Shown piece after piece: positions 3,862-30,966 of a stretch of DNA of 32,000 bases. Both the position numbers and the translations under genes were made by a program. Within the stretch, counting starts at the first letter, position 1, and each line of letters starts with the position of its first letter. The notes beneath the pieces were generated by a model. That model did not search any database, was not told where the DNA came from, and saw nothing but the letters and a program-made list of their open reading frames with translations. The stretch is from assembly GCA_965224465.1 (NCBI GenBank), contig OZ245049.1, positions 510,001 to 542,000 on the forward strand, written 5' to 3'. Source of the stretch: Flavobacteriaceae bacterium (GTDB lineage Bacteria; Bacteroidota; Bacteroidia; Flavobacteriales; Flavobacteriaceae).

Positions 3862-3978
3862 TGTACTCTTACTCGTTTTTTTTGGGGAAAAATAAAAGAG
3901 CAAGACAACTTTACACAAACAAAAGATGCTGTACACTCAAACTTTTAATCCCGAAAGTTTTATAAAAAATGTTTGCTT

Positions 3979-4120: not shown

Positions 4121-4272
4121 TCTTAAATACTAAAAATAGAAACCAATAGCAGGGCAAATGTATATGAATAAATCATATTGAACTAAGAAAATATTAACTT
4201 TTTAATAGCATGACAATCAATGCTATAGCTATGTAAAATGATAAAAATCAGGAAACAAAAAATAGATAAAGA

Positions 4273-8573: not shown

Positions 8574-9749
8574 ATGGCTTATATTCAAATTAAAGGTTAC
8601 CCTAATACAAAAATAAAAATTAAACTTCCTAAAGTTATCAAGAAGGCTGAAATATTAGAAGCTTATTGGTCAGATGAAAAAGGAATTAAAATCAATGTTT
8701 TAGACTATAACAAGAAAGCCTATATAAGGATAAAAAGTAAAAATATATTTAAAAAAATTATAACATTACGTGTATATGAAAGCGATATCGGACCTATGAA
8801 TGATGATTTCATATGGGAAGATGAATTATCTCTTAAAAATAATGATGCAATTTTATCCTTTAATTTAACTCCAAATATGTTTGTTAAAGGAGAAGAGGAT
8901 CTGGTAAACTTCTATTTTACTTTACAAATAGAAGATCAAGATGAAAAAGAATTTAATAATAATAAAAAAGAGTATTTAAAGGTTCATTTAGTACGCTATG
9001 TTCCTGGAGTATTAAAAGCTTTAGGGTGGAATAAAGGGGCAGAACTACAAGAAGAATGGTTTAGTAGACAAGCAAGTAGCAACCCTGACTCTAACAATCC
9101 TAATTTATCTATCATAACGATGAATTGGATATTAGGATTTACAAGTGCTAAAACATTGCTTAGCTCTATGATTACTCAGAAAATTTGGGTAAATACAGCA
9201 GGAAAAAGAGCCTTGCTATCAGAAATTAAACGCATGATTAAAGATAATGAAGTGACCATCCCGATTAATGAAGGTAGTTCTTCTAGTTTTGGGGTATTTA
9301 ACAATACTATAATTAATTACAAAAATAAAAGGATTCCAAAATTTGATAAATACCACTATCAAGAACGTGCATTTGCTCCTGGATCTTTTAGCACATTGGA
9401 TGATCTCACTGCTGCCTTGGCTAATTTCGTTTTCAGAATGTCTTCTGGAGGAACGATAACCAAAAACAAAGACAATTATACTATTCAAATAATTAAAGTT
9501 GCCACTTATGTAAGAGACTCCTTTGACTTTATTGATCCAGGATGGGCTAGTCAAAATTTAGGCTACTGGAACATACAGGAAAATAAAGTAGTTAAATTTT
9601 CTTTGGGTTCTGGATATAGATTAATTGAAAATTCTAGTTATCAAAATTACAGGAGTGAATTTCAGATGGGAGGAGATTTTCGTTTATATAGCGATATTCA
9701 CTATACAAATACTAATGATACTTTTGACGTACCTTTAACTACTTTCTAA
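8574..9749 (+). CDS. Polymorphic-toxin-like protein, variant 1 (C-terminal domain of unknown function)
   Basis: 391 aa. The first 22 aa, MAYIQIKGYPNTKIKIKLPKVI, are shared with the 15197 ORF (MAWIEIKGYPETRMKIEFPKVV), after which the two proteins diverge completely. A small membrane-protein gene follows 3 nt later. Confidence 0.5.
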   Translation: MAYIQIKGYPNTKIKIKLPKVIKKAEILEAYWSDEKGIKINVLDYNKKAYIRIKSKNIFKKIITLRVYESDIGPMNDDFIWEDELSLKNNDAILSFNLTPNMFVKGEEDLVNFYFTLQIEDQDEKEFNNNKKEYLKVHLVRYVPGVLKALGWNKGAELQEEWFSRQASSNPDSNNPNLSIITMNWILGFTSAKTLLSSMITQKIWVNTAGKRALLSEIKRMIKDNEVTIPINEGSSSSFGVFNNTIINYKNKRIPKFDKYHYQERAFAPGSFSTLDDLTAALANFVFRMSSGGTITKNKDNYTIQIIKVATYVRDSFDFIDPGWASQNLGYWNIQENKVVKFSLGSGYRLIENSSYQNYRSEFQMGGDFRLYSDIHYTNTNDTFDVPLTTF

Positions 9750-11341: not shown

Positions 11342-12460
11342 AATTCAAGTAGTAAATGCAACTTCTTAGATTTGAGAGTTTCTAAGGTTTATTTTTCAAA
11401 ACAGAAAGAGAGTCACCTCTCCTTCATGTTTTGATGGAATAGTTACCTTACGCCCTCAAGTCTCTGAAAAAGAAGTAGTATGGCACATTTAACCAAAGAA
11501 CAAAGATACACAATTACCTGTATGTTATCACAGGGGTATTCTAAGTCCAAAATAGCCTTGGCTATAGGGAAACATAAAAGCACTATAAGTAGAGAATGCA
11601 AACGTAATTGCGATGCTCGTAGCGGCTCCTATGAATACGAATTAGCACATAGAAAGTGGAAGGATAGACATAAGAAAAAGCGAAAGCACATTAGGTTTAC
11701 TGAGAAGATAAGAAGCGAGGTTGAAAAGCTGTTACGTGATGATTATAGTCCAGAACAAGTGGTTGGAATACTTACTAAGCAAGGAAAAGAAGTTGTTTCA
11801 GTAGAACGTATTTATCAGCATATCTGGCAAGATAAGAAGCATAAAGGCACACTCTATACTCATTTAAGAAGACAAGGAAGGAAGTACAGGAAACGAGGGG
11901 CATTCAAGGACTCACGTGGTATTATTAAAGATCGAATTAGTATTGAAAAACGACCAGATATAGTGGAGAAAAGAGAACGTTTTGGAGATTTAGAAGTGGA
12001 TTTAATAATTGGAAAAAATCATCATCAAGCCATTCTTACAATCAATGACAGGGCTTCTGGGATGCTAAAGATGAAAAAAATAGCATCTAAAGAATCTTCT
12101 GTTGTAACAGCTGCTATTAATGAGCTTTTAGAAGATTGGATACCGTATATAAACACTATAACAGCTGATAACGGAAAAGAGTTTGCAGGACATAAAAAAG
12201 TAGCTGAATTTTTAGGAATCGATTATTATTTTGCACATCCTTACCATTCATGGGAAAGAGGATCTAATGAAAATTTAAATGGGCTTATTCGGCAATATTT
12301 CCCTAAAGGAAGTGACTTTTCGATATTAACTAAGCAGATGATAAAACAGGTGGAAGGAAAATTAAATAGAAGGCCTAGGAAAAGGTTTTCATATCAAAAC
12401 CCTATATTTGTAATGAATCAATTATTGTTTAACCAAAAAGTTGCGTTTATAAGTTGAATT
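11342..12460 (+). mobile_element. IS30-family insertion sequence (~1.12 kb)
   Basis: Imperfect terminal inverted repeats: AATTCAAgTagTAAAtGCAACTTcTT at 11342-11367, and the reverse complement of 12435-12460 (AATTCAAcTtaTAAAcGCAACTTtTT). The transposase stop lies inside the right repeat. No clear target duplication was seen. Confidence 0.6.
11480..12457 (+). CDS. IS30-family transposase
   Basis: 325 aa. It has an N-terminal HTH (LTKEQRYTITCMLSQGYSKSKIA...STISRECKRN) and a DDE core (GDLEVDLI, ITADNGKEF, WERGSNENLNGLIRQYFPKG). Confidence 0.9.
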   Translation: MAHLTKEQRYTITCMLSQGYSKSKIALAIGKHKSTISRECKRNCDARSGSYEYELAHRKWKDRHKKKRKHIRFTEKIRSEVEKLLRDDYSPEQVVGILTKQGKEVVSVERIYQHIWQDKKHKGTLYTHLRRQGRKYRKRGAFKDSRGIIKDRISIEKRPDIVEKRERFGDLEVDLIIGKNHHQAILTINDRASGMLKMKKIASKESSVVTAAINELLEDWIPYINTITADNGKEFAGHKKVAEFLGIDYYFAHPYHSWERGSNENLNGLIRQYFPKGSDFSILTKQMIKQVEGKLNRRPRKRFSYQNPIFVMNQLLFNQKVAFIS

Positions 12461-13972: not shown

Positions 13973-15109
13973 ATGAAAAGGACAGAAATTTACATACCCG
14001 TAAAAAATGCGAAACGTATAAAAGTAAGTATTCCGTATCATAGGACAGTCCTAAGACAAAAAATTAAAGAGATAAACAGTTCCTTTTGGCATCCCAATCA
14101 AAAATTATGGTCGGTTATAAATACCGAAGAAAATTTTGAACTGTTAAAATCCATTTGTGGAAAAGACACGTTGCTTAGCGCGGAAAAGTCCCCCACTCCA
14201 CTACCCGAAGTAATTTTAAATCAGAGACAGATAGAAGCGCTATTAAACTTAGAAAAAACACTGGTGTTAAAACGCTATGGTTTATCGACCATACGCATGT
14301 ATAAAAGAATGTTTAGTTTATTTTTAATGAAATTTTCCAGTAGAGATTTGGTACAAATCACTAAACAAGAAATAGAGTCCTTTATATATGAGTTGATTAA
14401 AAAAAACGGTATTTCGGAGAGCATGCAAAACCAAATTATTAATGCCATTAAAGCCTATTATGAACATGTTTTAAAAAAACCAAGAGAATTTTACGATATA
14501 GAACGTCCCAAAAAAACGATAAACATACCAAATGTGTTAAGTGAAGAGGAAGTAGTAGCATTACTTAACAGTCCTAAAAACCTGAAACATAAGGCTATAT
14601 TATGGACAATATATAGTGCTGGCCTACGAATAAGCGAAGTATTAAATTTAAGAATTGCAGATATAAATTCGGACGACGGCTATCTTTTTATAAAAAACAG
14701 CAAAGGAAATAGAGACCGAAAAACAATCTTATCTCCTCGTTTACTCCCTTTATTAAGAAGTTATTATAAAAAATACCGTCCCTCCTATTGGTTATTTGAA
14801 GGACAAACTGGCGGAAAATATACCCAAAGTAGTATTCGTAGTTTTTTTAGACGTGCCGTAGAAGAATCCAACATAAACCCCTGGGCAACAGTACACACCT
14901 TAAGGCATTCATTTGCTACACATTGCATCATAAACCAAGTAAGTATGCGTCATGTACAGAATATGCTAGGCCATGCCTCTCCTAAAACAACCGAGATTTA
15001 CACCAAAACAATTGAAATAAATAACAAAAAAATTAAAGGACCGCTTGAAAACTTAAAAAATTTGAATACATTTAACAAAAAAACAACACACAACCCGAAA
15101 CTATTATAG
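13973..15109 (+). CDS. Tyrosine site-specific recombinase (XerC/D-like catalytic spacing with an ~80-aa N-terminal extension)
   Basis: Catalytic signature: AGLRISE (Arg), HTLRHSFATH (His-x-x-Arg), LGHASPKTTEIYT (His...Tyr). It has a SAM-like core-binding region, ESMQNQIINAIKAYYEHVL. Only about 88 aa separate box I Arg from box II His, so the extra IntI-specific insertion appears to be absent. Confidence 0.9.
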   Translation: MKRTEIYIPVKNAKRIKVSIPYHRTVLRQKIKEINSSFWHPNQKLWSVINTEENFELLKSICGKDTLLSAEKSPTPLPEVILNQRQIEALLNLEKTLVLKRYGLSTIRMYKRMFSLFLMKFSSRDLVQITKQEIESFIYELIKKNGISESMQNQIINAIKAYYEHVLKKPREFYDIERPKKTINIPNVLSEEEVVALLNSPKNLKHKAILWTIYSAGLRISEVLNLRIADINSDDGYLFIKNSKGNRDRKTILSPRLLPLLRSYYKKYRPSYWLFEGQTGGKYTQSSIRSFFRRAVEESNINPWATVHTLRHSFATHCIINQVSMRHVQNMLGHASPKTTEIYTKTIEINNKKIKGPLENLKNLNTFNKKTTHNPKLL

Positions 15110-16781: not shown

Positions 16782-16792
16782 AACGTTTTGTA

Positions 16793-18648
16793 ATCGAGTA
16801 GACGGGTGACAACTGAATAGTTGCCACTGCGCCTCTCACACCACCGTACGTACGGGTCTCGTATACGGCGGTTCAAAAAATTGAAGTCTGCGTATTATTA
16901 ATGTAATCTATCAAAGGTTTATACCCTTTTCGTACAAGTCTAGATTTGGTAATGGTAGTCTTTAAAATTGGACTTTGGGCTACTGCCCATCCTCCCATTC
17001 TGGTTCTACTCCAAGCGTATGCTTGTCCATTCTCTATTCCTAATCTGATTAGGTTTTTACGTTTTCGTTCGAGTTTTTTCCAATCGTGCCAAATACAATA
17101 TCGCAACCGATTTCTTATCCACTCATCTAGCTTTTTAACTTTTGCATAGATGTTGGTTAAACGGTAATTATTCATCCAGCCTCGGCAGACTTGATTAAGC
17201 CGTTCTAAACGTTCCGACAATGACATTGGTTTGGTTTTCTTGGTAATACTCTTTAGGTTACGCTTAAACTTTGCCCAACTTTTCTTTGCTACTACTAGTA
17301 TATATTGTCCTTTTACTCCCTTTTTGTAGACTGGCACAAAGCCATGTCCTAGTAACTCAAAGTTTACGGGTCTACGAATGCCACTTTTGGCTTTATTTAT
17401 AGGTAGTTTTAATTTGTCTTTTAAGAAGACAAACAACGTATTCCCTATTTGTTTCGCCTCACGTTTGGTCTTTGCGTAAATGCTAAAATCATCTGCGTAG
17501 CGGACGTACCGTAAACCCATTCTTTTCATTTCTTTATCCAAGACGTCTAACATTATGTTAGATAGTAAGGGACTAATTGGGCTTCCTTGCGGGATTCCTT
17601 TTCTACGCTTTTGAAGTTTCCCATTTATTAAAATAGGAACTCTAAGCCATTTTCGGATTAAACGCATGGTTGTTGGACATTTTACCCTGTGGTAAATAAG
17701 TTGTAGTAGGATACAATGGTCCACTTCATCAAAGAACCCTTTAAGGTCAATATCTACAATATCTTGGTAACCATTATTGATATACTGTTGAGCTTGTAGT
17801 ACTGCTTTTTGAATGTTCTTTTGTGGTCTAAACCCAAAACTAAGTGGCTCAAAATCAAATTCGAACTGAACCATTAATTGTTGGCTTACCGCTTGCTGTA
17901 GCCATCTATCTACTACTGTTGGGATTCCTAAAAGTCTGGTTTTACCCTTGCCTTTTGGAATGCTTACTCCTAAGATTGAGTTTGGAACATAGCTATTCTT
18001 ACGGATCGTTGTTAGTATGTCTGAACGGTTTTCAACTATATAAGTTGAAAGTTCCGTTACTTTCATACCATCAACTCCGCTAGCTCCTTTATTTCGCTTC
18101 ACTTGACGTGCTGCTTTAAAAAGGTTGGTAGCTTCTAGTACTTTGTCAATCATAGGTTAAATAATTCGGGTACTCCTGTTGGTTTAAAACTAGGCTAGCT
18201 AGGCATCCTAATTGAATTTCAACGTAATTTAATGTTCTGTCCTTCCCTATTTGTGAGACCATCTGAGGTCTTTCCTCAACTCGTTTCCCATAGGTACTAT
18301 GACGTCTGCTGACTTCTCCATAGAACCAACTCCTGGCTTTGGAGACCTCCCCAGGTAATGACATCTTCTTTCACTCAATCACTGCCGTATCTACATAACT
18401 ACCCTTTTAGTATTCTTTTGGGCGTTGCAATGATGTGTTTACTTACCCAAGTAATTATACCTCTGTATACGGTTTCTGTTCGTCAGTACCGAGCTTTGTA
18501 GTCTCGCTTCCTTCAGATAAAACCTCACGGTTTTCACCCTTGCGACTTACTAATGTTTCAGAACGTTACTCCTGCACATAAGGGACTTGCACCCTCTAGA
18601 TTAATTAACTACCTTTCCGTAGTTAAAAGATGCCCATGCTGGGCACAC
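16793..18648 (-). mobile_element. Group II intron, bacterial class C (IIC), copy 1; intact, 1856 nt
   Basis: Read on the minus strand: 5' GTGTGCCCAGCATGGG, AGGGTGCAAGTCCC, CTGAAGGAAGCGAGAC, CCTGGGGAGGTCTCC, GAAGTCAGCAGACGTCATAGTACC. Domain V is GAACCGCCGTATACGAGACCCGTACGTACGGTGGTGTG, followed by a short domain VI ending ...CTACTCGAT. As I recall it, this closely parallels the Oceanobacillus iheyensis IIC ribozyme. The ends are uncertain by about 2 nt. Confidence 0.9.
16873..18153 (-). CDS. Group II intron reverse transcriptase/maturase (no endonuclease domain)
   Basis: 426 aa. RT blocks: GVDGM, RLLGIPTVVDRWLQQA, FGFRPQKN, DIDLKGFFD, GIPQGSPISPLLSN, YVRYADDFSIY. It has an X/maturase tail. The stop abuts domain V. 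Confidence 0.95.
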   Translation of the reverse strand: MIDKVLEATNLFKAARQVKRNKGASGVDGMKVTELSTYIVENRSDILTTIRKNSYVPNSILGVSIPKGKGKTRLLGIPTVVDRWLQQAVSQQLMVQFEFDFEPLSFGFRPQKNIQKAVLQAQQYINNGYQDIVDIDLKGFFDEVDHCILLQLIYHRVKCPTTMRLIRKWLRVPILINGKLQKRRKGIPQGSPISPLLSNIMLDVLDKEMKRMGLRYVRYADDFSIYAKTKREAKQIGNTLFVFLKDKLKLPINKAKSGIRRPVNFELLGHGFVPVYKKGVKGQYILVVAKKSWAKFKRNLKSITKKTKPMSLSERLERLNQVCRGWMNNYRLTNIYAKVKKLDEWIRNRLRYCIWHDWKKLERKRKNLIRLGIENGQAYAWSRTRMGGWAVAQSPILKTTITKSRLVRKGYKPLIDYINNTQTSIF

Positions 18649-18840
18649 ACAAAGTATATAAAACATAGCTAATAAGTGCTTAACCCAAAGGTCAGTGCTT
18701 ATTTACTAAGTTCCGCCAAATTTTTAATTTGGCTTTTAAAATAGAAAAGATAAAAACAAAATATAAAAATCTGGCTCTGTGCTAAACCCGAAATTTATCG
18801 TATTTTCATACGCTACGTTTCATATACAAACCGTTAGGTG
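18649..18840 (+). other. Long attC-like site (right part; the left 9 nt are at 16784-16792, split off by intron 1)
   Basis: The reconstituted left end is GTTTTGTA|AC-AAAGTATA. It has three GTGCTWA boxes, the first two 19 nt apart. The central hairpin is GCCAAATTTTTA (18715) paired with TAAAAATCTGGC (18775). The right end is TATACaaaccGTTAGGTG (18833-18840). Confidence 0.65.
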
Positions 18841-19026: not shown

Positions 19027-19221
19027 ATGAATCGGATAAAAGAAGTTTTGGAAGAAAAAGGCATTAAACAAATTTGGCTTGCTGAGAAATTGGGGAAAAG
19101 CTATAATATGGTAAATGCTTATGTACAAAACAGACAACAACCAAGATTAGAAATTTTATTCAAGATTGCGGAAATACTGGATATTTCTGTAAAAGATTTA
19201 ATTATTGAAGCTAAAAAATAA
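19027..19221 (+). CDS. XRE-family helix-turn-helix regulator
   Basis: 64 aa. The HTH is IKQIWLAEKLGKSYNMVNAYVQNRQQP. It has a paralogue at 31196 that also heads a cassette. Confidence 0.85.
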   Translation: MNRIKEVLEEKGIKQIWLAEKLGKSYNMVNAYVQNRQQPRLEILFKIAEILDISVKDLIIEAKK

Positions 19222-19222
19222 A

Positions 19223-21190
19223 ATGACAATATTACATCCATTAGATGATTTCATATATACTCTTTTTCCAAACATTGAAAAGAGCCAAGATAGTCTTGAA
19301 ACTGCACTAACAGAATTCTATTCAGTTGGAAATGTTAAACCTATCATTGAATTCAATAAAGAATTTGTCAAAATAACTATTGACTTTCTTAAAATTGAAA
19401 CCGAAAACAAACAATTTTCAAAATTGATTTCACTATGTGAATCAGCAAATTTCGAAGAAGCCAAAATTTTAGCTGACAAATTAATTGAATTAAATCCTAA
19501 TAATTCAGAATATCACAGAATTCACGGACAAATATATTCGGAATTAGGCAATCAAGGAGAAGCAATAAATTCATTAATATATTCTTTAAGATGGAATCCT
19601 AAAAATGAATGGGCTTTACTAATGATGGGTAATATTTTCGCGAAATATCAAAACGATATTAATACCGCAATGAAATACTACGACCAAGTATTGATTGTAA
19701 AACCAAACGATTGCATTACTTTAAATAATATTGGTGCAAATTTAATGCAACTCAATAATAAAAAAGAGGCAATAATTTATTTTAATAGAGCGTTAAAATC
19801 AGACAGTAATTATCCTAACACATATTACGGGCTTGCGTTAGTTGCAAATGGTGATGAAGATTATAAAAAAGCTTTTGAATTATCACTTGTTGCATTATCA
19901 AAAACAAATAAAAAATCAAACCAACAACTTTATTCAAATTCCTTTCATTTAGCTTTAGAATCAGCAAATAAACTAAAGGAAGTTGTAAATGCAGATAAAA
20001 TAATCAAAGATTTTACTGCAAAACTCGCCTATTTATCAGAAAAAGAAATAAAAATTGAGATTGACGATACTATACTAACATCAGCAAAAATTGAATTTGC
20101 AGAAAATTATGATAGAGAATATCATTTAGTAAAGTACAAATCAAATCATATTGGTGTTGAACATTTAATACTTCATGAATTAACACATTTAGAACTAGTG
20201 TTAGAAGCTAGAAAAGAGGATTTAAACGAGCTTTTTATAAGTAATGAATCAAACAAAACCAATTTTATATACTCGCTAGAAAAAGACACTTTAAAACTTA
20301 AAAAAAATGGAGTTTCAGAAGAAAATATTACCAATTATTTTTCTGCCCTTTTCAATGGTTTAAACAGTCAAACTTTTAATACACCAATTGATTTATTTAT
20401 TGAAGATAGAATTTTTAGCAATTGGGAAGAATTAAAACCAATTCAATTTCTTTCTTTATTGTCAATATTACAGGAAGGTATTCAGGCAAATACAAATAAA
20501 GAAATTGTAAAAAATACTCCAAAAACGGTTCTTTCGAAATCAAAAATTTACAACCTAATCAATGCTTTACATTTCAAAAAACTATTTGAATTAGATTTAA
20601 TAGACCAATTTAACGCAACAAAACTTGAACTAAATCAAGCAACTGAACTTTATGCTGAATTTGAAGAATATAGAGTTGATAAAGCACCTGCAGAGGAATA
20701 CGAATTAGTAAAACATTGGGGTGAAGATTTAAAATTGGATGATTTTTACGAATTAGTACCTGAATCTGATTACCGAAAAAAAACTATAGATTCGGTACTT
20801 GAAGAAATTCAAAATGACCCATTAGGTCTGAATACTTCAAATTCATCACACGACCGTAAAATGAAAAAATTCCTAGAAGAAAATTCTTCTGAGGAAATAA
20901 ACATGGCAGTTGCCATGTTTATGGGTGATGCACTAAAACATTTTAAAGCAATTCCATTAGCAGAAACTAAAAAAATTGCTTTTGAAATTGCTACAATTGG
21001 AACTCAAGGAATAGACCCAAACCAAAAAAACTATTCAATACCTTCAATAAAAAACAGTAGTTTTTCTGGCTATAAAACTTTAGCATATTATTATGTTAGT
21101 TGGGCATTAGCTATTCCAGAAATGTTAAAACAATTGCAATTGCCTTTCGATAAAGAATATAAACTAGCTACTAAATTTTTAAAACTCTAA
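19223..21190 (+). CDS. TPR-repeat protein with an HExxH (zinc-metallopeptidase-like) motif
   Basis: The start is probably the ATG at 19223, 1 nt after the XRE stop; the tracked start at 19205 overlaps the XRE gene. At least three TPR units span residues ~80-230 (NPNNSEYHRIHGQIYSELGNQGEAI..., KPNDCITLNNIGANL..., DSNYPNTYYGLALV). The motif VEHLILHELTHLELV lies at about residue 320. Confidence 0.6.
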   Translation: MTILHPLDDFIYTLFPNIEKSQDSLETALTEFYSVGNVKPIIEFNKEFVKITIDFLKIETENKQFSKLISLCESANFEEAKILADKLIELNPNNSEYHRIHGQIYSELGNQGEAINSLIYSLRWNPKNEWALLMMGNIFAKYQNDINTAMKYYDQVLIVKPNDCITLNNIGANLMQLNNKKEAIIYFNRALKSDSNYPNTYYGLALVANGDEDYKKAFELSLVALSKTNKKSNQQLYSNSFHLALESANKLKEVVNADKIIKDFTAKLAYLSEKEIKIEIDDTILTSAKIEFAENYDREYHLVKYKSNHIGVEHLILHELTHLELVLEARKEDLNELFISNESNKTNFIYSLEKDTLKLKKNGVSEENITNYFSALFNGLNSQTFNTPIDLFIEDRIFSNWEELKPIQFLSLLSILQEGIQANTNKEIVKNTPKTVLSKSKIYNLINALHFKKLFELDLIDQFNATKLELNQATELYAEFEEYRVDKAPAEEYELVKHWGEDLKLDDFYELVPESDYRKKTIDSVLEEIQNDPLGLNTSNSSHDRKMKKFLEENSSEEINMAVAMFMGDALKHFKAIPLAETKKIAFEIATIGTQGIDPNQKNYSIPSIKNSSFSGYKTLAYYYVSWALAIPEMLKQLQLPFDKEYKLATKFLKL

Positions 21191-21194
21191 AATT

Positions 21195-21524
21195 ATGGGA
21201 GATATAAAAGAAATAACTACTGAGTTATTAAAATTTAGAAACGAAAGAGATTGGGAACAATTTCATAATCCCAAAGATTTGGCATTGGCAATAAATATTG
21301 AAGCTGGCGAATTATTGGAAGAATTTTTATGGAAAAAACCAGAAGAAGCTAAAATTGAAAAAATTAAAGAAGAATTAGCAGACGTTTTTGCTTATGCCTT
21401 TTTACTAGCTGATAAATATGATTTTAATGTTAAAAAAATAATATTAGAAAAAATAAAAAAAAATGGAGAAAAGTACCCAATAGAAAAAGCTAAGGGAACA
21501 GCTAAAAAATACAATCAATTATAA
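21195..21524 (+). CDS. MazG-like nucleoside-triphosphate pyrophosphohydrolase (all-alpha NTP-PPase, DCTPP1/YpjD-like)
   Basis: 109 aa. Motifs: FRNERDWEQFHNPKDLALAINIEAGELLEEFLWK, then EELADVFAYAFLLADKYDF. Confidence 0.8.
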   Translation: MGDIKEITTELLKFRNERDWEQFHNPKDLALAINIEAGELLEEFLWKKPEEAKIEKIKEELADVFAYAFLLADKYDFNVKKIILEKIKKNGEKYPIEKAKGTAKKYNQL

Positions 21525-23749
21525 TGTTTAGTAACTCTGTTAATGTAAAAAGTTACCCTTTTAATAAGATAGATATTGGGTTAATCAATAATGATGATTT
21601 TGCTCGTGACTCATATCCTATTGTTTACATCTTATACAATACCGAAACTATGATAGCTTATGTTGGTGAGTCAACAAATGCTATGAATAGGATGAGTAAT
21701 CATTTAGTTCATCCTGAAAAGAAGAACTTGAAATGGGTTTATATAATTTCGGATGAATCATTTAATAAATCTGCTGCTCTAGATATTGAGTCAAATCTCA
21801 TTCAGTATATGACAGCAGCTGGTAATTTTAAACTACTTAATGGTAACGGTGGCGTATCAAGTCATAATTACTACCAAAAAAATGAGTATTTCAAAATTTT
21901 TAAAGAAGTTTGGAGTAAATTATCATTTGAGAATATTAAAATGAAAGATTTATTAGAGTTAGAAAACTCTGATATATATAAATATTCACCATATAAATCG
22001 TTATCATCAGATCAATATAATTCCATCTTGGAAATATTAAAAAGTTATTCAAGTGGGAAAATAAAAACAATTTTCGTAGATGGTAGTGCGGGAACAGGAA
22101 AAACAATTTTAGCCATCTATTTAATTAAATTACTAGCCACATTATATCAATACGAACTACATGATTTAGATATTGAAGATGAATCTCTTTTGTTAGAATT
22201 AGAAGCATTTAAATTAAAGCACCCCGAAACACTTAGCCTTGCTCTTGTAGTTCCCATGACTTCACTTCGTAGCACTTTGAAAAAGGTATTTAAAAGTATA
22301 CACGGTTTGTCTGGAAATATGGTAATTGGCCCTAATGATGTGGTAAAAAAACAATATGATTTATTGATTATAGATGAATCTCATCGCTTGACACGTAGAA
22401 AATCTATTCTAGGATATGGAGCATTTGATAATGTTAATAAAAAATTAGGATTATATCATAGTGAAATAATAAACGGTAAGAGAGTACAATCAGCAGAAAA
22501 AAACGGTACACAATTAGATTGGATTACGAAATCTAGTAAATTTCAATTATTATTTTATGATGCAGAACAATCTATTAAGCCTGCAGATATAAGAAAGGAA
22601 GACTTTGATAAAATTAAGGAAAAAAGTGATGCTTTACAAATGACACTTGTTTCTCAAATGCGTTCAAAAGGAAAAAATGATTACATATCATTTGTGGATA
22701 AATTGTTAAACGAAAAACTAGATGATAATTCCACCCAATTTCATAATCCAAATTATGAGTTGGAATTATATGATGATATGTCTTTTATGATGAAGCGTTT
22801 GCAAGAAATGGAAAATAAATTTGGCTTATGTCGCACAATGTCTGGTAATTCGTGGCCTTGGGTTTCAAGAACAAATTCTAAAAAACCAGATGCCATCATT
22901 GATGGAGTCGATTTGTTTTGGAACATAAAAACAATAGATTGGATAAATTCTACAACAGAAGTTACGGAAATGGGCTGTATTCATACTGTCCAAGGCTATG
23001 ATTTGAATTATTCTGCAATAATATTTGGAGAGGAAATCACATATGATAAGCAAGAGAAAAAAATTAAAGTCATAAAAAGAAACTATCATGATGCAAAAGG
23101 AAAACAATCCTTAGGAAATGAAGATGAGTTATTAAAATACATAATTAAGATATATAAAACAATGATGTATCGTGGCATTAGAGGTACATTTATTTATGTT
23201 TGCGATAAAAATTTACGTGACTATTTTGAGAACTACATCACTCTTAATAAGCCAGAAAATAAATTAAGAATTTTACCCTTTGAAGATGTTAAACCTTATG
23301 TGAACTCTGTTCCTTTAGTTGATATTTATGCAGCTGCAGGTGAGTTTAGTGAATTGCAGATTTCAAATGAAGACTTTGATTGGGTTGAGTTACCAAAAAA
23401 TATTTCAGTTCAAGAAGGATATTTTGTTTGCCAAATAATCGGTGAATCTATGAATAAGAAAATAGAAAATGGTTCTTGGTGCTTATTTCGTAAGAAGCCT
23501 GTTGGTAGCAGAGAAGGTAAGATTGTTTTGGCTAAACATTACGATATCCAGGACTCTGATTTTGGTGCTGGATATACCGTCAAATCATATCATAGTGAAA
23601 AAAATATTTCTGAAGAAAGTTGGTCTCATAAATCAATTGTTCTAAAACCACTCTCATTTGATTCTAGTTTTAAAGACATAATATTAAGTGGAGATGAAAT
23701 AAATAAATTACAAATAGTTGGAGAATTAATTACTGTTTTAGACATTTGA
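21524..23749 (+). CDS. Three-domain fusion: GIY-YIG-like nuclease, DUF2075 (Schlafen-type P-loop NTPase/helicase-like), and S24 LexA/UmuD-like peptidase
   Basis: The ATG overlaps the MazG stop (TAATG). N-terminus: PIVYILYN...AYVGESTNAMNRMSNH...LDIESNLI. Middle: Walker A VDGSAGTGKT, Walker B LLIIDESHRL, YDAEQSI, and CIHTVQGYDLNYSAIIFG. C-terminus: VPLVDIYAAAGEF...IIGESMNKKIENGSWCLF...GKIVLAKH, with Ser in GxSM and Lys. Confidence 0.7.
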   Translation: MFSNSVNVKSYPFNKIDIGLINNDDFARDSYPIVYILYNTETMIAYVGESTNAMNRMSNHLVHPEKKNLKWVYIISDESFNKSAALDIESNLIQYMTAAGNFKLLNGNGGVSSHNYYQKNEYFKIFKEVWSKLSFENIKMKDLLELENSDIYKYSPYKSLSSDQYNSILEILKSYSSGKIKTIFVDGSAGTGKTILAIYLIKLLATLYQYELHDLDIEDESLLLELEAFKLKHPETLSLALVVPMTSLRSTLKKVFKSIHGLSGNMVIGPNDVVKKQYDLLIIDESHRLTRRKSILGYGAFDNVNKKLGLYHSEIINGKRVQSAEKNGTQLDWITKSSKFQLLFYDAEQSIKPADIRKEDFDKIKEKSDALQMTLVSQMRSKGKNDYISFVDKLLNEKLDDNSTQFHNPNYELELYDDMSFMMKRLQEMENKFGLCRTMSGNSWPWVSRTNSKKPDAIIDGVDLFWNIKTIDWINSTTEVTEMGCIHTVQGYDLNYSAIIFGEEITYDKQEKKIKVIKRNYHDAKGKQSLGNEDELLKYIIKIYKTMMYRGIRGTFIYVCDKNLRDYFENYITLNKPENKLRILPFEDVKPYVNSVPLVDIYAAAGEFSELQISNEDFDWVELPKNISVQEGYFVCQIIGESMNKKIENGSWCLFRKKPVGSREGKIVLAKHYDIQDSDFGAGYTVKSYHSEKNISEESWSHKSIVLKPLSFDSSFKDIILSGDEINKLQIVGELITVLDI

Positions 23750-23813: not shown

Positions 23814-23860
23814 CACGCCAACGCTAGTAAGTTTGCGGAAAGAAAAAAGCCAGACACCTA

Positions 23861-25765
23861 ATCGAGTAGACGGGTGACAACTGAATAGTTGCCACTGCGC
23901 CTCTCACACCACCGTACGTACGGGTCTCGTATACGGCGGTTCAAAAAATTGAAGTCTGCGTATTATTAATGTAATCTATCAAAGGTTTATACCCTTTTCG
24001 TACAAGTCTAGATTTGGTAATGGTAGTCTTTAAAATTGGACTTTGGGCTACTGCCCATCCTCCCATTCTGGTTCTACTCCAAGCGTATGCTTGTCCATTC
24101 TCTATTCCTAATCTGATTAGGTTTTTACGTTTTCGTTCGAGTTTTTTCCAATCGTGCCAAATACAATATCGCAACCGATTTCTTATCCACTCATCTAGCT
24201 TTTTAACTTTTGCATAGATGTTGGTTAAACGGTAATTATTCATCCAGCCTCGGCAGACTTGATTAAGCCGTTCTAAACGTTCCGACAATGACATTGGTTT
24301 GGTTTTCTTGGTAATACTCTTTAGGTTACGCTTAAACTTTGCCCAACTTTTCTTTGCTACTACTAGTATATATTGTCCTTTTACTCCCTTTTTGTAGACT
24401 GGCACAAAGCCATGTCCTAGTAACTCAAAGTTTACGGGTCTACGAATGCCACTTTTGGCTTTATTTATAGGTAGTTTTAATTTGTCTTTTAAGAAGACAA
24501 ACAACGTATTCCCTATTTGTTTCGCCTCACGTTTGGTCTTTGCGTAAATGCTAAAATCATCTGCGTAGCGGACGTACCGTAAACCCATTCTTTTCATTTC
24601 TTTATCCAAGACGTCTAACATTATGTTAGATAGTAAGGGACTAATTGGGCTTCCTTGCGGGATTCCTTTTCTACGCTTTTGAAGTTTCCCATTTATTAAA
24701 ATAGGAACTCTAAGCCATTTTCGGATTAAACGCATGGTTGTTGGACATTTTACCCTGTGGTAAATAAGTTGTAGTAGGATACAATGGTCCACTTCATCAA
24801 AGAACCCTTTAAGGTCAATATCTACAATATCTTGGTAACCATTATTGATATACTGTTGAGCTTGTAGTACTGCTTTTTGAATGTTCTTTTGTGGTCTAAA
24901 CCGACCAACGGGAGCTCATGAACTCCCTAAAATAAAAAGCTGTGAATAACCCAAAACTAAGTGGCTCAAAATCAAATTCGAACTGAACCATTAATTGTTG
25001 GCTTACCGCTTGCTGTAGCCATCTATCTACTACTGTTGGGATTCCTAAAAGTCTGGTTTTACCCTTGCCTTTTGGAATGCTTACTCCTAAGATTGAGTTT
25101 GGAACATAGCTATTCTTACGGATCGTTGTTAGTATGTCTGAACGGTTTTCAACTATATAAGTTGAAAGTTCCGTTACTTTCATACCATCAACTCCGCTAG
25201 CTCCTTTATTTCGCTTCACTTGACGTGCTGCTTTAAAAAGGTTGGTAGCTTCTAGTACTTTGTCAATCATAGGTTAAATAATTCGGGTACTCCTGTTGGT
25301 TTAAAACTAGGCTAGCTAGGCATCCTAATTGAATTTCAACGTAATTTAATGTTCTGTCCTTCCCTATTTGTGAGACCATCTGAGGTCTTTCCTCAACTCG
25401 TTTCCCATAGGTACTATGACGTCTGCTGACTTCTCCATAGAACCAACTCCTGGCTTTGGAGACCTCCCCAGGTAATGACATCTTCTTTCACTCAATCACT
25501 GCCGTATCTACATAACTACCCTTTTAGTATTCTTTTGGGCGTTGCAATGATGTGTTTACTTACCCAAGTAATTATACCTCTGTATACGGTTTCTGTTCGT
25601 CAGTACCGAGCTTTGTAGTCTCGCTTCCTTCAGATAAAACCTCACGGTTTTCACCCTTGCGACTTACTAATGTTTCAGAACGTTACTCCTGCACATAAGG
25701 GACTTGCACCCTCTAGATTAATTAACTACCTTTCCGTAGTTAAAAGATGCCCATGCTGGGCACAC
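23861..25765 (-). mobile_element. Group IIC intron, copy 2; 1905 nt, RT-defective
   Basis: It matches copy 1 wherever I compared the two, and the RT translations are identical outside the lesion. The exception is a 49-nt insertion at 24901-24949. It sits at the same position of an attC-like site (CACCTA|intron|AC). Confidence 0.9.
23941..25270 (-). pseudogene. Disrupted intron RT/maturase
   Basis: The RT reading frame is split into a 124-aa N-terminal ORF (24896-25270, ending in out-of-frame residues) and a 283-aa remainder (23941-24792). The cause is the 49-nt insertion inside the FGFRPQKN block. Confidence 0.9.
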
Positions 25766-25956
25766 ACAATGTATAAAAAACATAGGGCGGTTTGTGCTAA
25801 ACTCTAAGTTCTGTGCTTGTTTACAAAGTCCGCTAAATATAAAATTTGGCATTTAGGAGAAAAATAAAAGCAAAATATTTATATTTAGCTAAGTAATAAA
25901 CCGAAACTAAAGTGCTTATTTATTGCCCTACGTTTCTTATACTAACCGTTGGCAAC
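25766..25956 (+). other. Long attC-like site (right part; the left end is at 23855-23860)
   Basis: The reconstituted left end is CACCTA|AC-AATGTATA. It has three GTGCT boxes. A perfect 12-bp central stem joins GCTAAATATAAA (25832) and TTTATATTTAGC (25889). The right end is TATACtaaccGTTGGCAAC (25948-25956). Confidence 0.65.
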
Positions 25957-26000: not shown

Positions 26001-26531
26001 ATGGAAATTTTAAATATTGAAATAAAAGCAAAATCGGACAACCAAACTGAAATTAGGAATATCCTGAAATCAAAAAATGCTAAATATAAAGGAACTGACC
26101 ACCAAATTGATACGTATTTTAATGTTAACAATGGACGATTGAAATTAAGAGAAGGAAATATTGAAAACAACTTAATCCATTATATTAGAGAAAATAAAAA
26201 AGGACCAAAACAATCAAAAATAATTCTTTTTAATTCAGAGCCCAATTCTACTTTAAAAGAATTATTGACTGTTGCAAACGGAATTTTAACAGTAATTGAT
26301 AAAGAAAGAGAAATATATTTTATTGAAAATGTGAAATTTCATATTGATACTGTAAAAGAATTAGGAACTTTTATAGAAATTGAAGCAATTGATAAAGATG
26401 GAAGTATTGGAAAAGATAAATTATTATTACAATGTGAATACTATCTTGATTTATTTAATATTCCCAAAGAAAACCTGATATCTGTTTCATATAGTGATTT
26501 GAAATTAAAAGAAAAAATGAGAATGAAATAA
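26001..26531 (+). CDS. CYTH-domain protein (CyaB-like class IV adenylyl cyclase / triphosphate tunnel enzyme)
   Basis: 176 aa. It has the N-terminal EIEIK-type motif (NIEIKAK), then DTYF, RLKLRE, KEREIYFIENVKFHIDTVKELGTFIEIEA, and SYSDL near the C-terminus. Confidence 0.75.
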   Translation: MEILNIEIKAKSDNQTEIRNILKSKNAKYKGTDHQIDTYFNVNNGRLKLREGNIENNLIHYIRENKKGPKQSKIILFNSEPNSTLKELLTVANGILTVIDKEREIYFIENVKFHIDTVKELGTFIEIEAIDKDGSIGKDKLLLQCEYYLDLFNIPKENLISVSYSDLKLKEKMRMK

Positions 26532-26543
26532 AGCCAGTTGCCA

Positions 26544-28448
26544 ATCGAGTAGACGGGTGACAACTGAATAGTTGCCACTGCGCCTCTCACACCACCGTAC
26601 GTACGGGTCTCGTATACGGCGGTTCAAAAAATTGAAGTCTGCGTATTATTAATGTAATCTATCAAAGGTTTATACCCTTTTCGTACAAGTCTAGATTTGG
26701 TAATGGTAGTCTTTAAAATTGGACTTTGGGCTACTGCCCATCCTCCCATTCTGGTTCTACTCCAAGCGTATGCTTGTCCATTCTCTATTCCTAATCTGAT
26801 TAGGTTTTTACGTTTTCGTTCGAGTTTTTTCCAATCGTGCCAAATACAATATCGCAACCGATTTCTTATCCACTCATCTAGCTTTTTAACTTTTGCATAG
26901 ATGTTGGTTAAACGGTAATTATTCATCCAGCCTCGGCAGACTTGATTAAGCCGTTCTAAACGTTCCGACAATGACATTGGTTTGGTTTTCTTGGTAATAC
27001 TCTTTAGGTTACGCTTAAACTTTGCCCAACTTTTCTTTGCTACTACTAGTATATATTGTCCTTTTACTCCCTTTTTGTAGACTGGCACAAAGCCATGTCC
27101 TAGTAACTCAAAGTTTACGGGTCTACGAATGCCACTTTTGGCTTTATTTATAGGTAGTTTTAATTTGTCTTTTAAGAAGACAAACAACGTATTCCCTATT
27201 TGTTTCGCCTCACGTTTGGTCTTTGCGTAAATGCTAAAATCATCTGCGTAGCGGACGTACCGTAAACCCATTCTTTTCATTTCTTTATCCAAGACGTCTA
27301 ACATTATGTTAGATAGTAAGGGACTAATTGGGCTTCCTTGCGGGATTCCTTTTCTACGCTTTTGAAGTTTCCCATTTATTAAAATAGGAACTCTAAGCCA
27401 TTTTCGGATTAAACGCATGGTTGTTGGACATTTTACCCTGTGGTAAATAAGTTGTAGTAGGATACAATGGTCCACTTCATCAAAGAACCCTTTAAGGTCA
27501 ATATCTACAATATCTTGGTAACCATTATTGATATACTGTTGAGCTTGTAGTACTGCTTTTTGAATGTTCTTTTGTGGTCTAAACCGACCAACGGGAGCTC
27601 ATGAACTCCCTAAAATAAAAAGCTGTGAATAACCCAAAACTAAGTGGCTCAAAATCAAATTCGAACTGAACCATTAATTGTTGGCTTACCGCTTGCTGTA
27701 GCCATCTATCTACTACTGTTGGGATTCCTAAAAGTCTGGTTTTACCCTTGCCTTTTGGAATGCTTACTCCTAAGATTTAGTTTGGAACATAGCTATTCTT
27801 ACGGATCGTTGTTAGTATGTCTGAACGGTTTTCAACTATATAAGTTGAAAGTTCCGTTACTTTCATACCATCAACTCCGCTAGCTCCTTTATTTCGCTTC
27901 ACTTGACGTGCTGCTTTAAAAAGGTTGGTAGCTTCTAGTACTTTGTCAATCATAGGTTAAATAATTCGGGTACTCCTGTTGGTTTAAAACTAGGCTAGCT
28001 AGGCATCCTAATTGAATTTCAACGTAATTTAATGTTCTGTCCTTCCCTATTTGTGAGACCATCTGAGGTCTTTCCTCAACTCGTTTCCCATAGGTACTAT
28101 GACGTCTGCTGACTTCTCCATAGAACCAACTCCTGGCTTTGGAGACCTCCCCAGGTAATGACATCTTCTTTCACTCAATCACTGCCGTATCTACATAACT
28201 ACCCTTTTAGTATTCTTTTGGGCGTTGCAATGATGTGTTTACTTACCCAAGTAATTATACCTCTGTATACGGTTTCTGTTCGTCAGTACCGAGCTTTGTA
28301 GTCTCGCTTCCTTCAGATAAAACCTCACGGTTTTCACCCTTGCGACTTACTAATGTTTCAGAACGTTACTCCTGCACATAAGGGACTTGCACCCTCTAGA
28401 TTAATTAACTACCTTTCCGTAGTTAAAAGATGCCCATGCTGGGCACAC
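26544..28448 (-). mobile_element. Group IIC intron, copy 3; 1905 nt, RT-defective
   Basis: It has the same 49-nt insertion (27584-27632) as copy 2. It also has a G-to-T change at 27778 that converts RT codon TCA (Ser in VPNSILG) to TAA. It is inserted at GTTGCCA|intron|AC. Confidence 0.9.
26624..27953 (-). pseudogene. Disrupted intron RT/maturase (insertion plus nonsense mutation)
   Basis: The 283-aa C-terminal ORF is intact (26624-27475). The N-terminal part is no longer an ORF because of the TAA created at 27777-27779 on the minus strand. Confidence 0.85.
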
Positions 28449-28635
28449 ACAATGTATATAATTAATGCGGGGTTTGTGCTTAATTCAAAGAGCTGTGCTT
28501 TCTACAAACAACGCCAAATATAAAATTTAGTTTGTAGAAAAAAATACAAGCAAAATTATTATATTTGGCTAAGTGCTAAACCGAAAAGATAATTCTTTTA
28601 AGTTCCGCACTAATCATATACCAACCGTTATGGGC
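28449..28635 (+). other. Long attC-like site (right part; the left end is at 26537-26543)
   Basis: The reconstituted left end is GTTGCCA|AC-AATGTATA. It has three GTGCT boxes. The central stem joins GCCAAATATAA (28513) and TTATATTTGGC (28569). The right end is ATATACcaaccGTTATGGGC (28627-28635). Confidence 0.65.
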
Positions 28636-28668: not shown

Positions 28669-30966
28669 ATGAATTATCAAATAGATTATAATACGATTGT
28701 AATAGTAGCCTGCATACCTTTTATAATTGCATTGACAGCAATAGCTTTTCCTTTATTACTACAAACAACCAGTAGAATAGATGATAAATATTCATCAACT
28801 AACTTAGTGAAAGTATTCTACAATAATCGAATTTGTAAAGTTTATTTCTTCTCATTAGTGCTTTCTATAATTGCAATTCCAATTTGGTTTTTTGCTCCTC
28901 CCCGAATTTGGGATTTTGGAATATTTAATGAGTTGGTAGATAAAACCTCCTTTTTAATAATTGGCTTAAGCACATTATTTTTAATATGGAATTTGTTTTC
29001 TCTCGTTTATCTAATTTATGTATTTTATAGCCCTAATAAATTACTTGAATATTTAATTGATAAGCACAACGAAACTAATTTAAAAGAGGAAAGAACAAAA
29101 TATTTTATTTCAATTTCTGATTTACTATACTTCTCAATTCAGAATCCTAATGAAAAAATTGCTCGACAACTTGTTGAGTTTCTTAATCATATTTTCATTA
29201 TGGAAAGAAAAGATAATGAAAGTCAAATTATTAAATATCCATCAGAATACTACGATACAATTTTTGAGGCAAACGAACAAATTTGTTTAAAGAAAAAGAA
29301 AACTATTTCAGAGTATAATGGAAGTACATTTGTTAACCTCTTTATCGATAGTTATCAGAAAACTATTATTAGTGAGGAAACTTACAATGCTATTTGGTTA
29401 TGTCTTAGACAAAGTTTAAGTTATGAAAGAAGCGATATTGTAATGTCTTATTGGGGTAATGCTCATCAGCATTTCAATATGTTTATGCCAGTAATTCATG
29501 AAGAAAGGAATGAAAATTTCAAGGTTATTAATCAAGAAATCATTAGAAAAAGAGAAATTGAAAGAGAAAGGTTTTTAGAATTTCATTATGCCTTTGGAGG
29601 ACTAATGATGTATTTAGGGAAAATGGAATTACTAAAAAGAATAATTAGTCATACAAATCAAACGCCACCTAAATATGTTCTTGTGCCACAGACAATGATT
29701 GAGATAATTCAGAGATATATGAGCATTGAAGAACCTTTACTCAATCCTTTTCAGTTTGAAAGCAGGTATCATTTTCCAGAAAATACAGGAATAAATGCTG
29801 GAGGTATAATAAGAAAATGGATAAGGAAATATTGTGCTTTACTTTTTTTACGCCAATATACCCTCCACGACTATTATTATGGAAGATCTGCTCTTGACTT
29901 ACCAAATGTTCCAAATTCATTAACAGAATTGAATGCTTGGAAAGAAAAATTGGAAAGTTTAAAAAGATTTATAAAAGAGTTACTTGTTGACAATGAGTCT
30001 TTAAAAGAGGTTGGTTTAGGTGATCTAAATAATGATTGGTTTACTAAAAATGAAAAACAAAAACCAGCGGAATTAATAGATACCCTTATTAAAAGAGCAA
30101 ACAAAAAATATGACGAAACAAAAAAAGAACAACCGGTTTCAAAAGACAAGGAAACTGAATTCAAAGCCAAGACTAAAGAAATTGTTTTGCAGGCTATAAA
30201 CACCTATACTGAAGTTAATAATGGCAATGATATTGAAGAAAATTTCAAATCCTATTATATTAATGGAGTTTATCAATTGATGGATAAATCGGGTTTTGCT
30301 GACAATCAAGATATTTCTCATCTTAATTCAGATACTATTGTTGCTCAAAGTGTTGCTTCAAATATACATTTTAAACTTACAAGTACTTTTTCTTATTTTA
30401 TTTCAAAAGATTACTTAATTGAAAGAGAGAATATTTTTGAGGCAATTGACAGGTTAAGTGTCAACCTTAAAGAATATTGTATAATATCATTTGGTGTTTA
30501 CCTTCCGTTTTTAGTAGACAATTTAAAAGTTCCTAATCTAACCAAACAAGGTGAATTCTATTATTTTCATGATACTAAAATAATTACTCTAAACACTTAT
30601 GTAAATGAAGTAGTAAGAGATTCTATTATAGTAATAAAGAAAGACTGTTTGCCTAAATTAGTATTTAAAACAATAGACACAGAAGAATTCACTAAATATA
30701 ACTTAGACGAATTGGATGAGCAAACTCATCTTTCTGCATCAATTGTTGATTTAAATATTAATCAAGATTTAAGGGATGAAATATCACGTAAATCGAATGA
30801 AGATTTAACAAAAAATGTATTAGCATGTATTTCCCTTTGTATTGAAACTCGCTGGAAATCATCTACTACTTGTTATCAATTTAAACCTTTTGACCAATTT
30901 AGAAATAAGGGAATTCCACAAAAATTGGAAGATATTGAAACGATAAATAAAACAACCAGCCCATAA
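28669..30966 (+). CDS. Large membrane-anchored protein of unknown function (about 4 N-terminal TM helices plus a ~630-aa soluble region)
   Basis: 765 aa. Hydrophobic segments lie within residues 10-125. I recognise no motif in the rest. The ORF fills its cassette exactly, and its stop codon lies inside the cassette-end motif GCCCATAAC. Confidence 0.6.
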   Translation: MNYQIDYNTIVIVACIPFIIALTAIAFPLLLQTTSRIDDKYSSTNLVKVFYNNRICKVYFFSLVLSIIAIPIWFFAPPRIWDFGIFNELVDKTSFLIIGLSTLFLIWNLFSLVYLIYVFYSPNKLLEYLIDKHNETNLKEERTKYFISISDLLYFSIQNPNEKIARQLVEFLNHIFIMERKDNESQIIKYPSEYYDTIFEANEQICLKKKKTISEYNGSTFVNLFIDSYQKTIISEETYNAIWLCLRQSLSYERSDIVMSYWGNAHQHFNMFMPVIHEERNENFKVINQEIIRKREIERERFLEFHYAFGGLMMYLGKMELLKRIISHTNQTPPKYVLVPQTMIEIIQRYMSIEEPLLNPFQFESRYHFPENTGINAGGIIRKWIRKYCALLFLRQYTLHDYYYGRSALDLPNVPNSLTELNAWKEKLESLKRFIKELLVDNESLKEVGLGDLNNDWFTKNEKQKPAELIDTLIKRANKKYDETKKEQPVSKDKETEFKAKTKEIVLQAINTYTEVNNGNDIEENFKSYYINGVYQLMDKSGFADNQDISHLNSDTIVAQSVASNIHFKLTSTFSYFISKDYLIERENIFEAIDRLSVNLKEYCIISFGVYLPFLVDNLKVPNLTKQGEFYYFHDTKIITLNTYVNEVVRDSIIVIKKDCLPKLVFKTIDTEEFTKYNLDELDEQTHLSASIVDLNINQDLRDEISRKSNEDLTKNVLACISLCIETRWKSSTTCYQFKPFDQFRNKGIPQKLEDIETINKTTSP

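Follow-up and report, generated by a model that had tools for sequence, protein, structure and literature searches.

Introduction

LexA, lambda cI and UmuD share the fold of peptidase family S24, which is joined to the helix-turn-helix (HTH) head of a repressor or, in UmuD, to a short tail, and the paradigm of the self-cleaving switch built on them concerns transcription factors and a polymerase subunit. A module of the same type is described here at the C-terminus of a 741-residue nuclease-helicase from a Flavobacteriaceae bacterium, encoded within a stretch of 32,000 nucleotides (positions 510,001 to 542,000 of contig OZ245049.1, assembly GCA_965224465.1) that is referred to as the window and to which all coordinates apply. 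This fusion protein consists of a GIY-YIG nuclease domain, a DUF2075 helicase domain of the superfamily 1 (SF1) type, also named Schlafen group 3, and the S24 module. The module resembles its relatives not only in fold, since the Ala-Gly pair, the Ser of G-x-S-M and the Lys of T-V-K stand in register with theirs, and residues P3-P1 read A/V-A-A, as does the VAA of LexA. It differs from LexA, cI and UmuD in that no DNA-binding HTH is present, a nuclease-helicase of 580 residues replacing the repressor head or the short UmuD tail, and in two additions, namely a leader (RILPF..V.PY.N.VPL.D) and an insertion of about eight residues before the Lys strand.

The nearest described architecture is that of Nhi and Nhi-like enzymes (Bari et al. 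2022; Millman et al. 2022), which likewise unite an N-terminal nuclease and a DUF2075 SF1-type helicase in one polypeptide and occur in mobile or defence contexts. Nhi, however, possesses a PD-(D/E)XK nuclease and another C-terminal domain where the fusion protein has GIY-YIG and S24, and Nhi acts alone, whereas the fusion family is always accompanied by a MazG-like partner. A survey by New England Biolabs (NEB) described fusions of DUF2075 with GIY-YIG, PD-(D/E)XK or HsdR-N, with a possible role in phage attenuation, and leaves S24 unmentioned. None of the Nhi models of PADLOC matched at E<=0.1, so the fusion protein is Nhi-like in architecture only.

Detailed knowledge of how nucleases are kept from harming their own cell when DNA is damaged or undergoes recombinational repair comes mainly from EcoKI of E. 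coli, where alleviation depends on ClpXP. Destruction of HsdR by ClpXP is the known mechanism of restriction alleviation for this enzyme, and the outcome proposed below for the fusion protein would be alike, in that proteolysis would remove a restriction nuclease-translocase at a time of danger to host DNA, after damage or recombination. EcoKI, in contrast, has no S24 domain, and ClpXP recognises HsdR translocating on unmodified host sites, whereas in the fusion protein the signal would be read by a built-in domain. CapH/CapP and ImmR/ImmA-type regulators, which serve defence systems and mobile elements, also place a protease between DNA damage and defence, and an XRE-type HTH gene and the gene of an HExxH protein do lie upstream of the fusion gene. 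In those systems, however, a metallopeptidase cleaves a repressor and thereby affects transcription, while the fusion protein would carry a serine autopeptidase on the effector itself; moreover, neither the HTH gene nor the HExxH gene, which encodes a tetratricopeptide repeat (TPR) protein, accompanies the S24 module in a conserved manner.

Fold, cleavage site and catalytic residues of the S24 module

The Pfam model Peptidase_S24 (PF00717) matches residues 602-674 of the fusion protein with 26.7 bits, against a cut-off of 23.3 (E 4.9e-6), and other members of the subfamily reach up to 40 bits against it. Searches of the PDB with a single sequence were weak, which is why a comparison of structures was needed: phmmer, run with the whole protein and with the C-terminus, gave no significant match in that database, the top C-terminal ones being spurious (ascorbate peroxidase). 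The C-terminal 160 residues of 16 homologues were aligned and then folded with AlphaFold2, yielding for residues 582-741 an all-beta model with a predicted local distance difference test score (pLDDT) of 70.7 and a predicted template modelling score of 0.68. Compared with the PDB by Foldseek, this model returned exclusively LexA, lambda cI and UmuD among its top 15 matches, RecA-filament complexes included (E 3.6e-6 to 2e-2, probability 1.00), with template modelling (TM) scores of up to 0.77 on the target. For the full-length protein, the model (pLDDT 70.8) has its best PDB match in 2ho0, a hyper-cleavable lambda cI fragment in which the region of the cleavage site is present (TM 0.70 on the target).

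Individual residues were placed by an hhalign alignment to E. coli LexA, whose numbering was checked by hand. In this alignment VPLVDIYAAAGEF lies over LPLVGRV-AAGEP, the A84|G85 site of LexA, IIGESMN lies over VSGMSMK (Ser119), and REGKIVLAK lies over RNGQVVVAR. The insertion of about eight residues precedes YTVKSY, the counterpart of LexA VTVKRL, and motif and spacing together point to the equivalence of K687 with LexA K156. The invariant columns of the 16-homologue alignment are A604, A605, G606, S642 and K687.

Much of what the sequence-only reading had proposed for this region agrees with these results. It had seen an S24 domain fused to a GIY-YIG-DUF2075 enzyme, and three Pfam matches above their gathering cut-offs, the Foldseek matches and the hhalign alignment all concur, with a Ser/Lys dyad that can be aligned. 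It had also placed the AAAG linker where LexA-type proteins have their Ala-Gly site, and residues 603-606 indeed fall on A83-A84-G85 of LexA. Its motif GKIVLAKH is part of the S24 domain as it supposed, but the two lysines within it, K666 and K671, vary among homologues, and the invariant one is K687 of YTVKSY. On every sequence and structure criterion tested, the C-terminus belongs to peptidase family S24, and self-cleavage is predicted. Judged by its residues, the module is catalytically intact and holds everything that an S24 autopeptidase needs.

Conservation of the dyad and the cleavage site

Residues were counted across 149 representatives of the S24 module clustered at 50% identity. Ser642 is kept in all 147 representatives without a gap at that position, and Lys687 in 148 of 149. 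P1 is Ala in 129 of 138 representatives and Cys, as in UmuD, in a further 6, while P1' is Gly in 128 of 138. The triplet P2-P1-P1' reads A-A-G in about 93% of the 149, and P3-P1 reads (A/V/I)-A-A in about 85% of members. Among 62 species-level orthologues of the fusion protein that bear the module, G[ED]SM, [FY]T[VIL]K and Ala-Gly are all kept in every one. Such conservation indicates that the dyad and the cleavage-site residues are under strong purifying selection. Degenerate pseudo-protease versions were absent from the 149 representatives, which argues that catalysis, beyond the mere fold, is maintained by selection.

A portable module of DNA-cutting defence enzymes

The sequence-only reading had treated the fusion as a single case, whereas it turns out to be one instance of a widespread module. 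A profile of the S24 module, run exhaustively against a library clustered at 50% identity, retrieved 1863 representatives at E<=1e-3, and 151 remained at E<=1e-30. S24 nearly always stands at the C-terminus, in host proteins of widely varying size. Pfam scans of long representatives and a census of 143 representatives identified as partners DUF2075 helicases (26), DUF3427 (SauUSI-like) helicases (9), Type ISP methylase proteins with a target recognition domain (9), ResIII helicases (9) and Type I HindI-like R subunits (4); HsdR, McrC, LlaJI, a PLD nuclease, an MrfA-like helicase and the Type II enzymes XhoI and NgoFVII were each met once, and an MmeI-like enzyme is exemplified by P0343. Classical repressor-type HTH partners amounted to about 8 of the 143. 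The S24 module is a portable accessory of unrelated DNA-cutting defence enzymes and forms a widespread subfamily. Open-access full text contained no description of S24 fused to restriction or defence enzymes or to DUF2075, although an earlier mention elsewhere is possible.

Two Type I HsdR proteins, P0345 (906 aa) and P0337 (260 aa, a fragment), depart from the terminal position. In both, S24 interrupts the N-terminal PD-(D/E)xK nuclease domain: the first helix (..IDELLRQAGWD..) precedes the module and the catalytic core (..DYVLY..AVIEAKR) follows it, so that cleavage would cut the nuclease domain. A gammaproteobacterial DUF2075-S24 protein, from Halomonas, has a different N-terminus and adjoins AbiE and PIN genes. 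In phage genomes, the module matches only ordinary HTH-S24 repressors, at 29% identity.

Certain S24 proteins of about 192 aa were considered as standalone forms and closest relatives of the module, and this was rejected, because their first residue is a Met within the DUF2075 tail (MYRGIKG...) and they are pieces of the same fusion, namely fragments, pseudogenes or calls split by a frameshift. Three Type ISP-like proteins (P0338, P0321 and P0344) continue after S24 in tails of about 200 aa with two arginine-rich repeats (..RDAAIRELAxxLGYxRTGxxV...RRGVL..) and no Pfam match. These tails were also considered as nucleases and rejected as such, since they resemble repeated winged-helix-like units; they therefore lend no support to the idea that cleavage severs a nuclease from a methylase.

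The nuclease-helicase core and its relatives

Walker A and the DExH box of the helicase are invariant in 84 of 84 orthologues, as are the catalytic-type residues Y35, Y46, G48, R56, H60, E89 and N106 of the GIY-YIG domain, and the nuclease-helicase core looks catalytically competent on this basis. By structure comparison, the helicase weakly matches RecD2, SLFN14, nsp13, Dna2 and Pif1. No NCBIfam model matches the fusion protein, and PADLOC gives only weak partial matches, to PDC-S14 (the GIY-YIG part), PDC-S41 (the C-terminal half of the helicase) and AbiO.

A word-indexed protein search returned 5663 relatives of the fusion protein, the nearest of which belong to Flavobacteriaceae and Roseivirga. 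Among the top 120, about 23 have the full length of about 741 aa, S24 included, and 65-85% identity, and most others, of about 579 aa and about 78% identity, end right after the helicase and so are devoid of S24. A genome scan restricted to one genome per species provided 80 loci, mostly from Bacteroidota (Flavobacterium, Pedobacter, Chitinophaga, Saprospiraceae, Neolewinella and Cytophagales), together with single metagenome-assembled genomes of Neomarinimicrobiota, Saccharibacteria and Porticoccaceae. The S24 module is present in 62 of the 80 loci, in the same open reading frame (ORF) as the core in 60, and about 13 loci genuinely lack it. Since core and module are read as one ORF in 60 independent species-level genomes, the fusion is not an assembly artefact. 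In a rough neighbour-joining tree of the core, S24-less forms are scattered over five or six places, in several of which they are surrounded by forms with S24, which implies that the module has been gained or lost repeatedly and that the core works without it. The S24 module is thus an accessory of this enzyme.

In several loci the fusion gene is a pseudogene or is split by a frameshift just 5' of S24 (L005, 5393-7001; L006-L008, about 7001-7040; L089, 5977-6046). Such split genes could reflect decay or sequencing error, or could hint at programmed frameshifting that controls S24 production.

The MazG-like partner is far more constant than the module. Its gene, which encodes an all-alpha NTP pyrophosphohydrolase, lies directly 5' of the fusion gene in 80 of 80 related loci, whether or not these carry S24, and also in all the metagenomic contexts checked, L001-L008 among them, so that the two genes constitute an obligate module. 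The two are translationally coupled, the stop codon of the MazG-like gene overlapping the ATG of the fusion gene in the window (TAATG), and the EExxE...EExxD motif of the partner looks intact. The partner has no match in PADLOC, and the open-access literature contained no mention of MazG together with DUF2075. The pair suggests an undescribed two-gene system that may link nucleotide-pool hydrolysis to a nuclease-helicase, and in Bacteroidota it may represent a new defence system.

A possible off-switch and its alternatives

The conserved fold, dyad and Ala-Gly site make a self-cleaving switch the best reading of the module. The best explanation of its purpose, held with slightly less than even confidence, is an off-switch on the enzyme that responds to RecA* and provides restriction alleviation, in which cleavage, trigger, direction and the part played by ClpXP are all inferred. 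The gene product would, as part of this explanation, be an Nhi-like DNA-targeting defence enzyme working with the MazG-like pyrophosphohydrolase. In the undamaged cell the full-length enzyme would be active, and S24 may also dimerise it, as it does LexA, cI and UmuD. During DNA damage or recombinational repair, filaments of RecA on single-stranded DNA (ssDNA) would induce S24 to cut its own chain at A605|G606; stimulation by RecA-ssDNA is expected because the closest structural relatives of the module are LexA, cI and UmuD. The cut would detach S24 and leave a nuclease-helicase ending in ...YAAA-COOH, similar to the ...VAA-COOH ClpX signal of LexA(1-84), and this fragment would be removed or disabled. 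If S24 does hold a dimer together, losing it would in addition deprive the GIY-YIG nuclease, which has a single active site, of its double-strand cutting. The net effect would be a built-in restriction alleviation that shields the host chromosome during repair.

The direction of such a switch is what the sequence-only reading had seen otherwise, taking enzyme activity to be licensed by autoproteolysis. S24 would then hold the enzyme inactive until RecA*, formed on phage intermediates or damaged DNA, brings about cleavage and frees an active fragment 1-605, in the manner of UmuD and UmuD'. Conservation of the dyad and the cleavage site fits activation equally well; activating cleavage has its precedent in UmuD, Nhi-type enzymes target phage replication intermediates, and some other defence systems are known to be up-regulated in response to DNA damage. 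The comparative evidence nevertheless leans away from this direction, which is unsupported and appears unlikely. The partners of the module include Type II enzymes (XhoI and NgoFVII), Type I, Type ISP and MmeI-like enzymes, which need constitutive activity against incoming DNA and would be useless against it if active only after damage. The abundant S24-less orthologues, at about 78% identity, amount to a constitutively released enzyme, which indicates that release is not dangerous, that a free core is tolerated and that an inhibitor is not needed. The position of S24 inside the nuclease domains of two independent HsdR proteins argues for disruption rather than activation. Finally, with (A/V/I)-A-A at P3-P1, the enzyme fragment would end in ...AAA-COOH or ...VAA-COOH, and such an exposed end favours degradation: the VAA end of the LexA N-terminal fragment is reportedly a latent recognition signal for ClpX (Neher et al. 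2003). Cleavage itself is possible without Ala at P2, as in lambda cI (VQA|G) and UmuD (VQC|G).

A structural or targeting role, in which the module serves docking or dimerisation and any cleavage is slow, constitutive or irrelevant, is a still less probable account. S24 domains of LexA, cI and UmuD do dimerise and bind the groove of the RecA filament, and the PDB matches 8gms, 8trg, 8gmu and 8gmt are RecA-filament complexes; as GIY-YIG has a single active site, a dimer would also aid double-strand breaks. Docking alone, however, would make Ser, Lys and Ala-Gly needless, yet they hardly vary even between highly diverged members and between classes of partner, and pseudo-protease variants are missing from the 149 representatives. 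Least probable of all, with only a small chance of being right, is that the trigger is something other than RecA*, such as a phage protein, pH, redox or a MazG-linked nucleotide signal, or that the module cleaves a substrate in trans. The conserved leader (ILPF..V.PY.N.VPL.D), which LexA lacks, would suit a separate trigger, and the obligate MazG-like partner suggests a nucleotide link; RecA-independent S24 regulators also exist, for example IrvR (PMC7101444). The MazG-like partner, however, is confined to this DUF2075 family, whereas S24 is common to many enzymes without MazG, and the closest structural matches are RecA-responsive proteins. Cleavage in trans is at odds with the cleavage site that the module carries in cis.

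Several points weigh against the alleviating off-switch itself. The AlphaFold2 models are of moderate confidence (pLDDT about 71), the 16-sequence profile ranks LexA first in the PDB but only weakly (E 0.16), and the hhalign probability is low against the single LexA sequence. For every member of the subfamily, cleavage, trigger and consequence are inferred. The A-A-G triplet is also required for cleavage itself, hence it is no proof of a degron role, and UmuD demonstrates that S24 cleavage may activate. Alleviation for EcoKI in E. coli is independent of the LexA regulon, so the two cases are analogous in outcome but not in pathway. Modification-dependent (Type IV-like) partners would, moreover, have a less obvious need of alleviation.

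Taken more broadly, the subfamily may constitute an undescribed class of LexA-type modules on Type I, ISP, IIL, II, IV and Nhi-like enzymes that acts as a cell-autonomous, post-translational switch responding to RecA* or damage, by built-in alleviation or alternatively by activation; this generalisation is given somewhat less than an even chance. The operon of the window, MazG-like + GIY-YIG-DUF2075-S24, would be one example, and would by itself add a new two-gene candidate to the anti-phage systems. If this is true, an S24 module built into a nuclease offers a simple and portable answer to host self-damage, and the LexA/UmuD/cI paradigm would be widened to defence enzymes. As a marker in genomes, the module could also lead to new DNA-targeting defence enzymes, and in engineering it could be used as a damage-responsive protein switch.

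Neighbouring genes and the surrounding island

The features of the window are collected in Table 1. Upstream of the MazG-like gene lies the gene of the TPR protein, homologues of which stand directly 5' of the MazG-like gene in about 19 of the 80 loci (E down to 1e-246), including the S24-less locus L068. HExxH is invariant in 14 full-length homologues of this protein, whose gene is an optional third member of the cluster and which is a putative novel metallopeptidase. The XRE-type HTH protein occurs only sporadically near homologues (L004, L064) and is probably a local regulator rather than a conserved part of the system. A CapH/CapP-like regulator made up of the HTH and TPR-HExxH proteins was considered and rejected, with the TPR gene in only about 19 of 80 loci and the HTH hardly conserved. 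Genes near relatives of the fusion gene include SauUSI-like, SIR2/STAND and retron-like reverse transcriptase (RT) genes, and AbiE in Halomonas. A scan for sigma-70 promoters and terminators found fewer sites than in shuffled sequence, Bacteroidota promoters being outside the model used.

Table 1. Positions of the fusion gene, its domains and residues, and further features in the window (E, expectation value; aa, amino acids)
Feature	Position	Strand	Basis or remark
Fusion gene, GIY-YIG + DUF2075/SLFN-g3 SF1-type helicase + S24 module, 741 aa, ATG start	21524..23749	+	ORF, three Pfam domains
GIY-YIG nuclease domain, residues 32-94	21617..21805	+	Pfam PF01541, 24.8 bits (gathering cut-off 22.6); PADLOC PDC-S14 matches
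DUF2075 / Schlafen group-3 helicase domain (SLFN-g3_helicase), residues 182-561	22067..23206	+	Pfam PF09848, E 1.4e-54, above gathering cut-off
Helicase Walker A, GSAGTGKT	22082-22105	+	
Helicase DESH box	22373-22384	+	
S24 module, residues 582-741: leader RILPF..V.PY.N.VPL.D, cleavage-site region, catalytic beta-domain	23267..23746	+	16-homologue alignment, AlphaFold2 and Foldseek
Predicted autocleavage site A603-A604-A605/G606, scissile bond A605|G606	23330..23341	+	Aligned to LexA A83-A84|G85; translation-checked
Ser642 in GESM, predicted nucleophile	23447..23449	+	Aligned to T. maritima LexA GESM and E. coli LexA GMSM Ser119
Lys687 in YTVKSY, predicted general base	23582..23584	+	Motif and spacing as LexA K156 (VTVKRL)
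MazG-like all-alpha NTP pyrophosphohydrolase, 109 aa	21195..21524	+	Pfam PF12643, E 1.7e-20
TPR protein, 661 aa, HExxH (H320, H324-E325-x-x-H328)	19205..21190	+	TPR Pfam matches; no Pfam peptidase match
XRE-type HTH protein, 64 aa, overlapping TPR gene start	19027..19221	+	Pfam HTH_3, E 1.1e-11
DUF6402 protein	8574-9749		In low-GC region
IS30-like transposase	11480-12457		In low-GC region
Tyrosine integrase	13973-15109		In low-GC region
Group II intron, three copies	~16792-18700, 23860-25770, 26543-28450	-	Rfam D1-D4, 126 bits; 100% identical 300-nt blocks
CYTH-domain protein, 176 aa, isolated between intron copies 2 and 3	26001-26531	+	E 3e-13
Cobalamin riboswitch	3965-4162	-	92.5 bits; 5' of 795-aa ORF 1549-3936

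From about 8200 to 32000 the window has a low GC content (0.27-0.32, versus 0.33-0.36 upstream). This region, which holds the integrase, the transposase and the DUF6402 gene, is probably an integrated mobile island, and several of its ORFs, such as one of 765 aa at 28669-30966, have no Pfam match. Together with the SauUSI-like, SIR2/STAND and AbiE genes beside relatives, this setting lends contextual support to a putative role of the fusion protein in phage resistance. Of the three group II introns, copy 1 contains an intact RT ORF of 426 aa (16873-18153), while copies 2 and 3 have 49 extra nucleotides in common and an RT ORF split into 283 and 124 aa; copy 2 starts about 110 nt past the stop codon of the fusion gene. 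At the other end of the window, the ORF behind the cobalamin riboswitch probably belongs to a B12-regulated outer-membrane receptor operon, which is unrelated to the S24 module.

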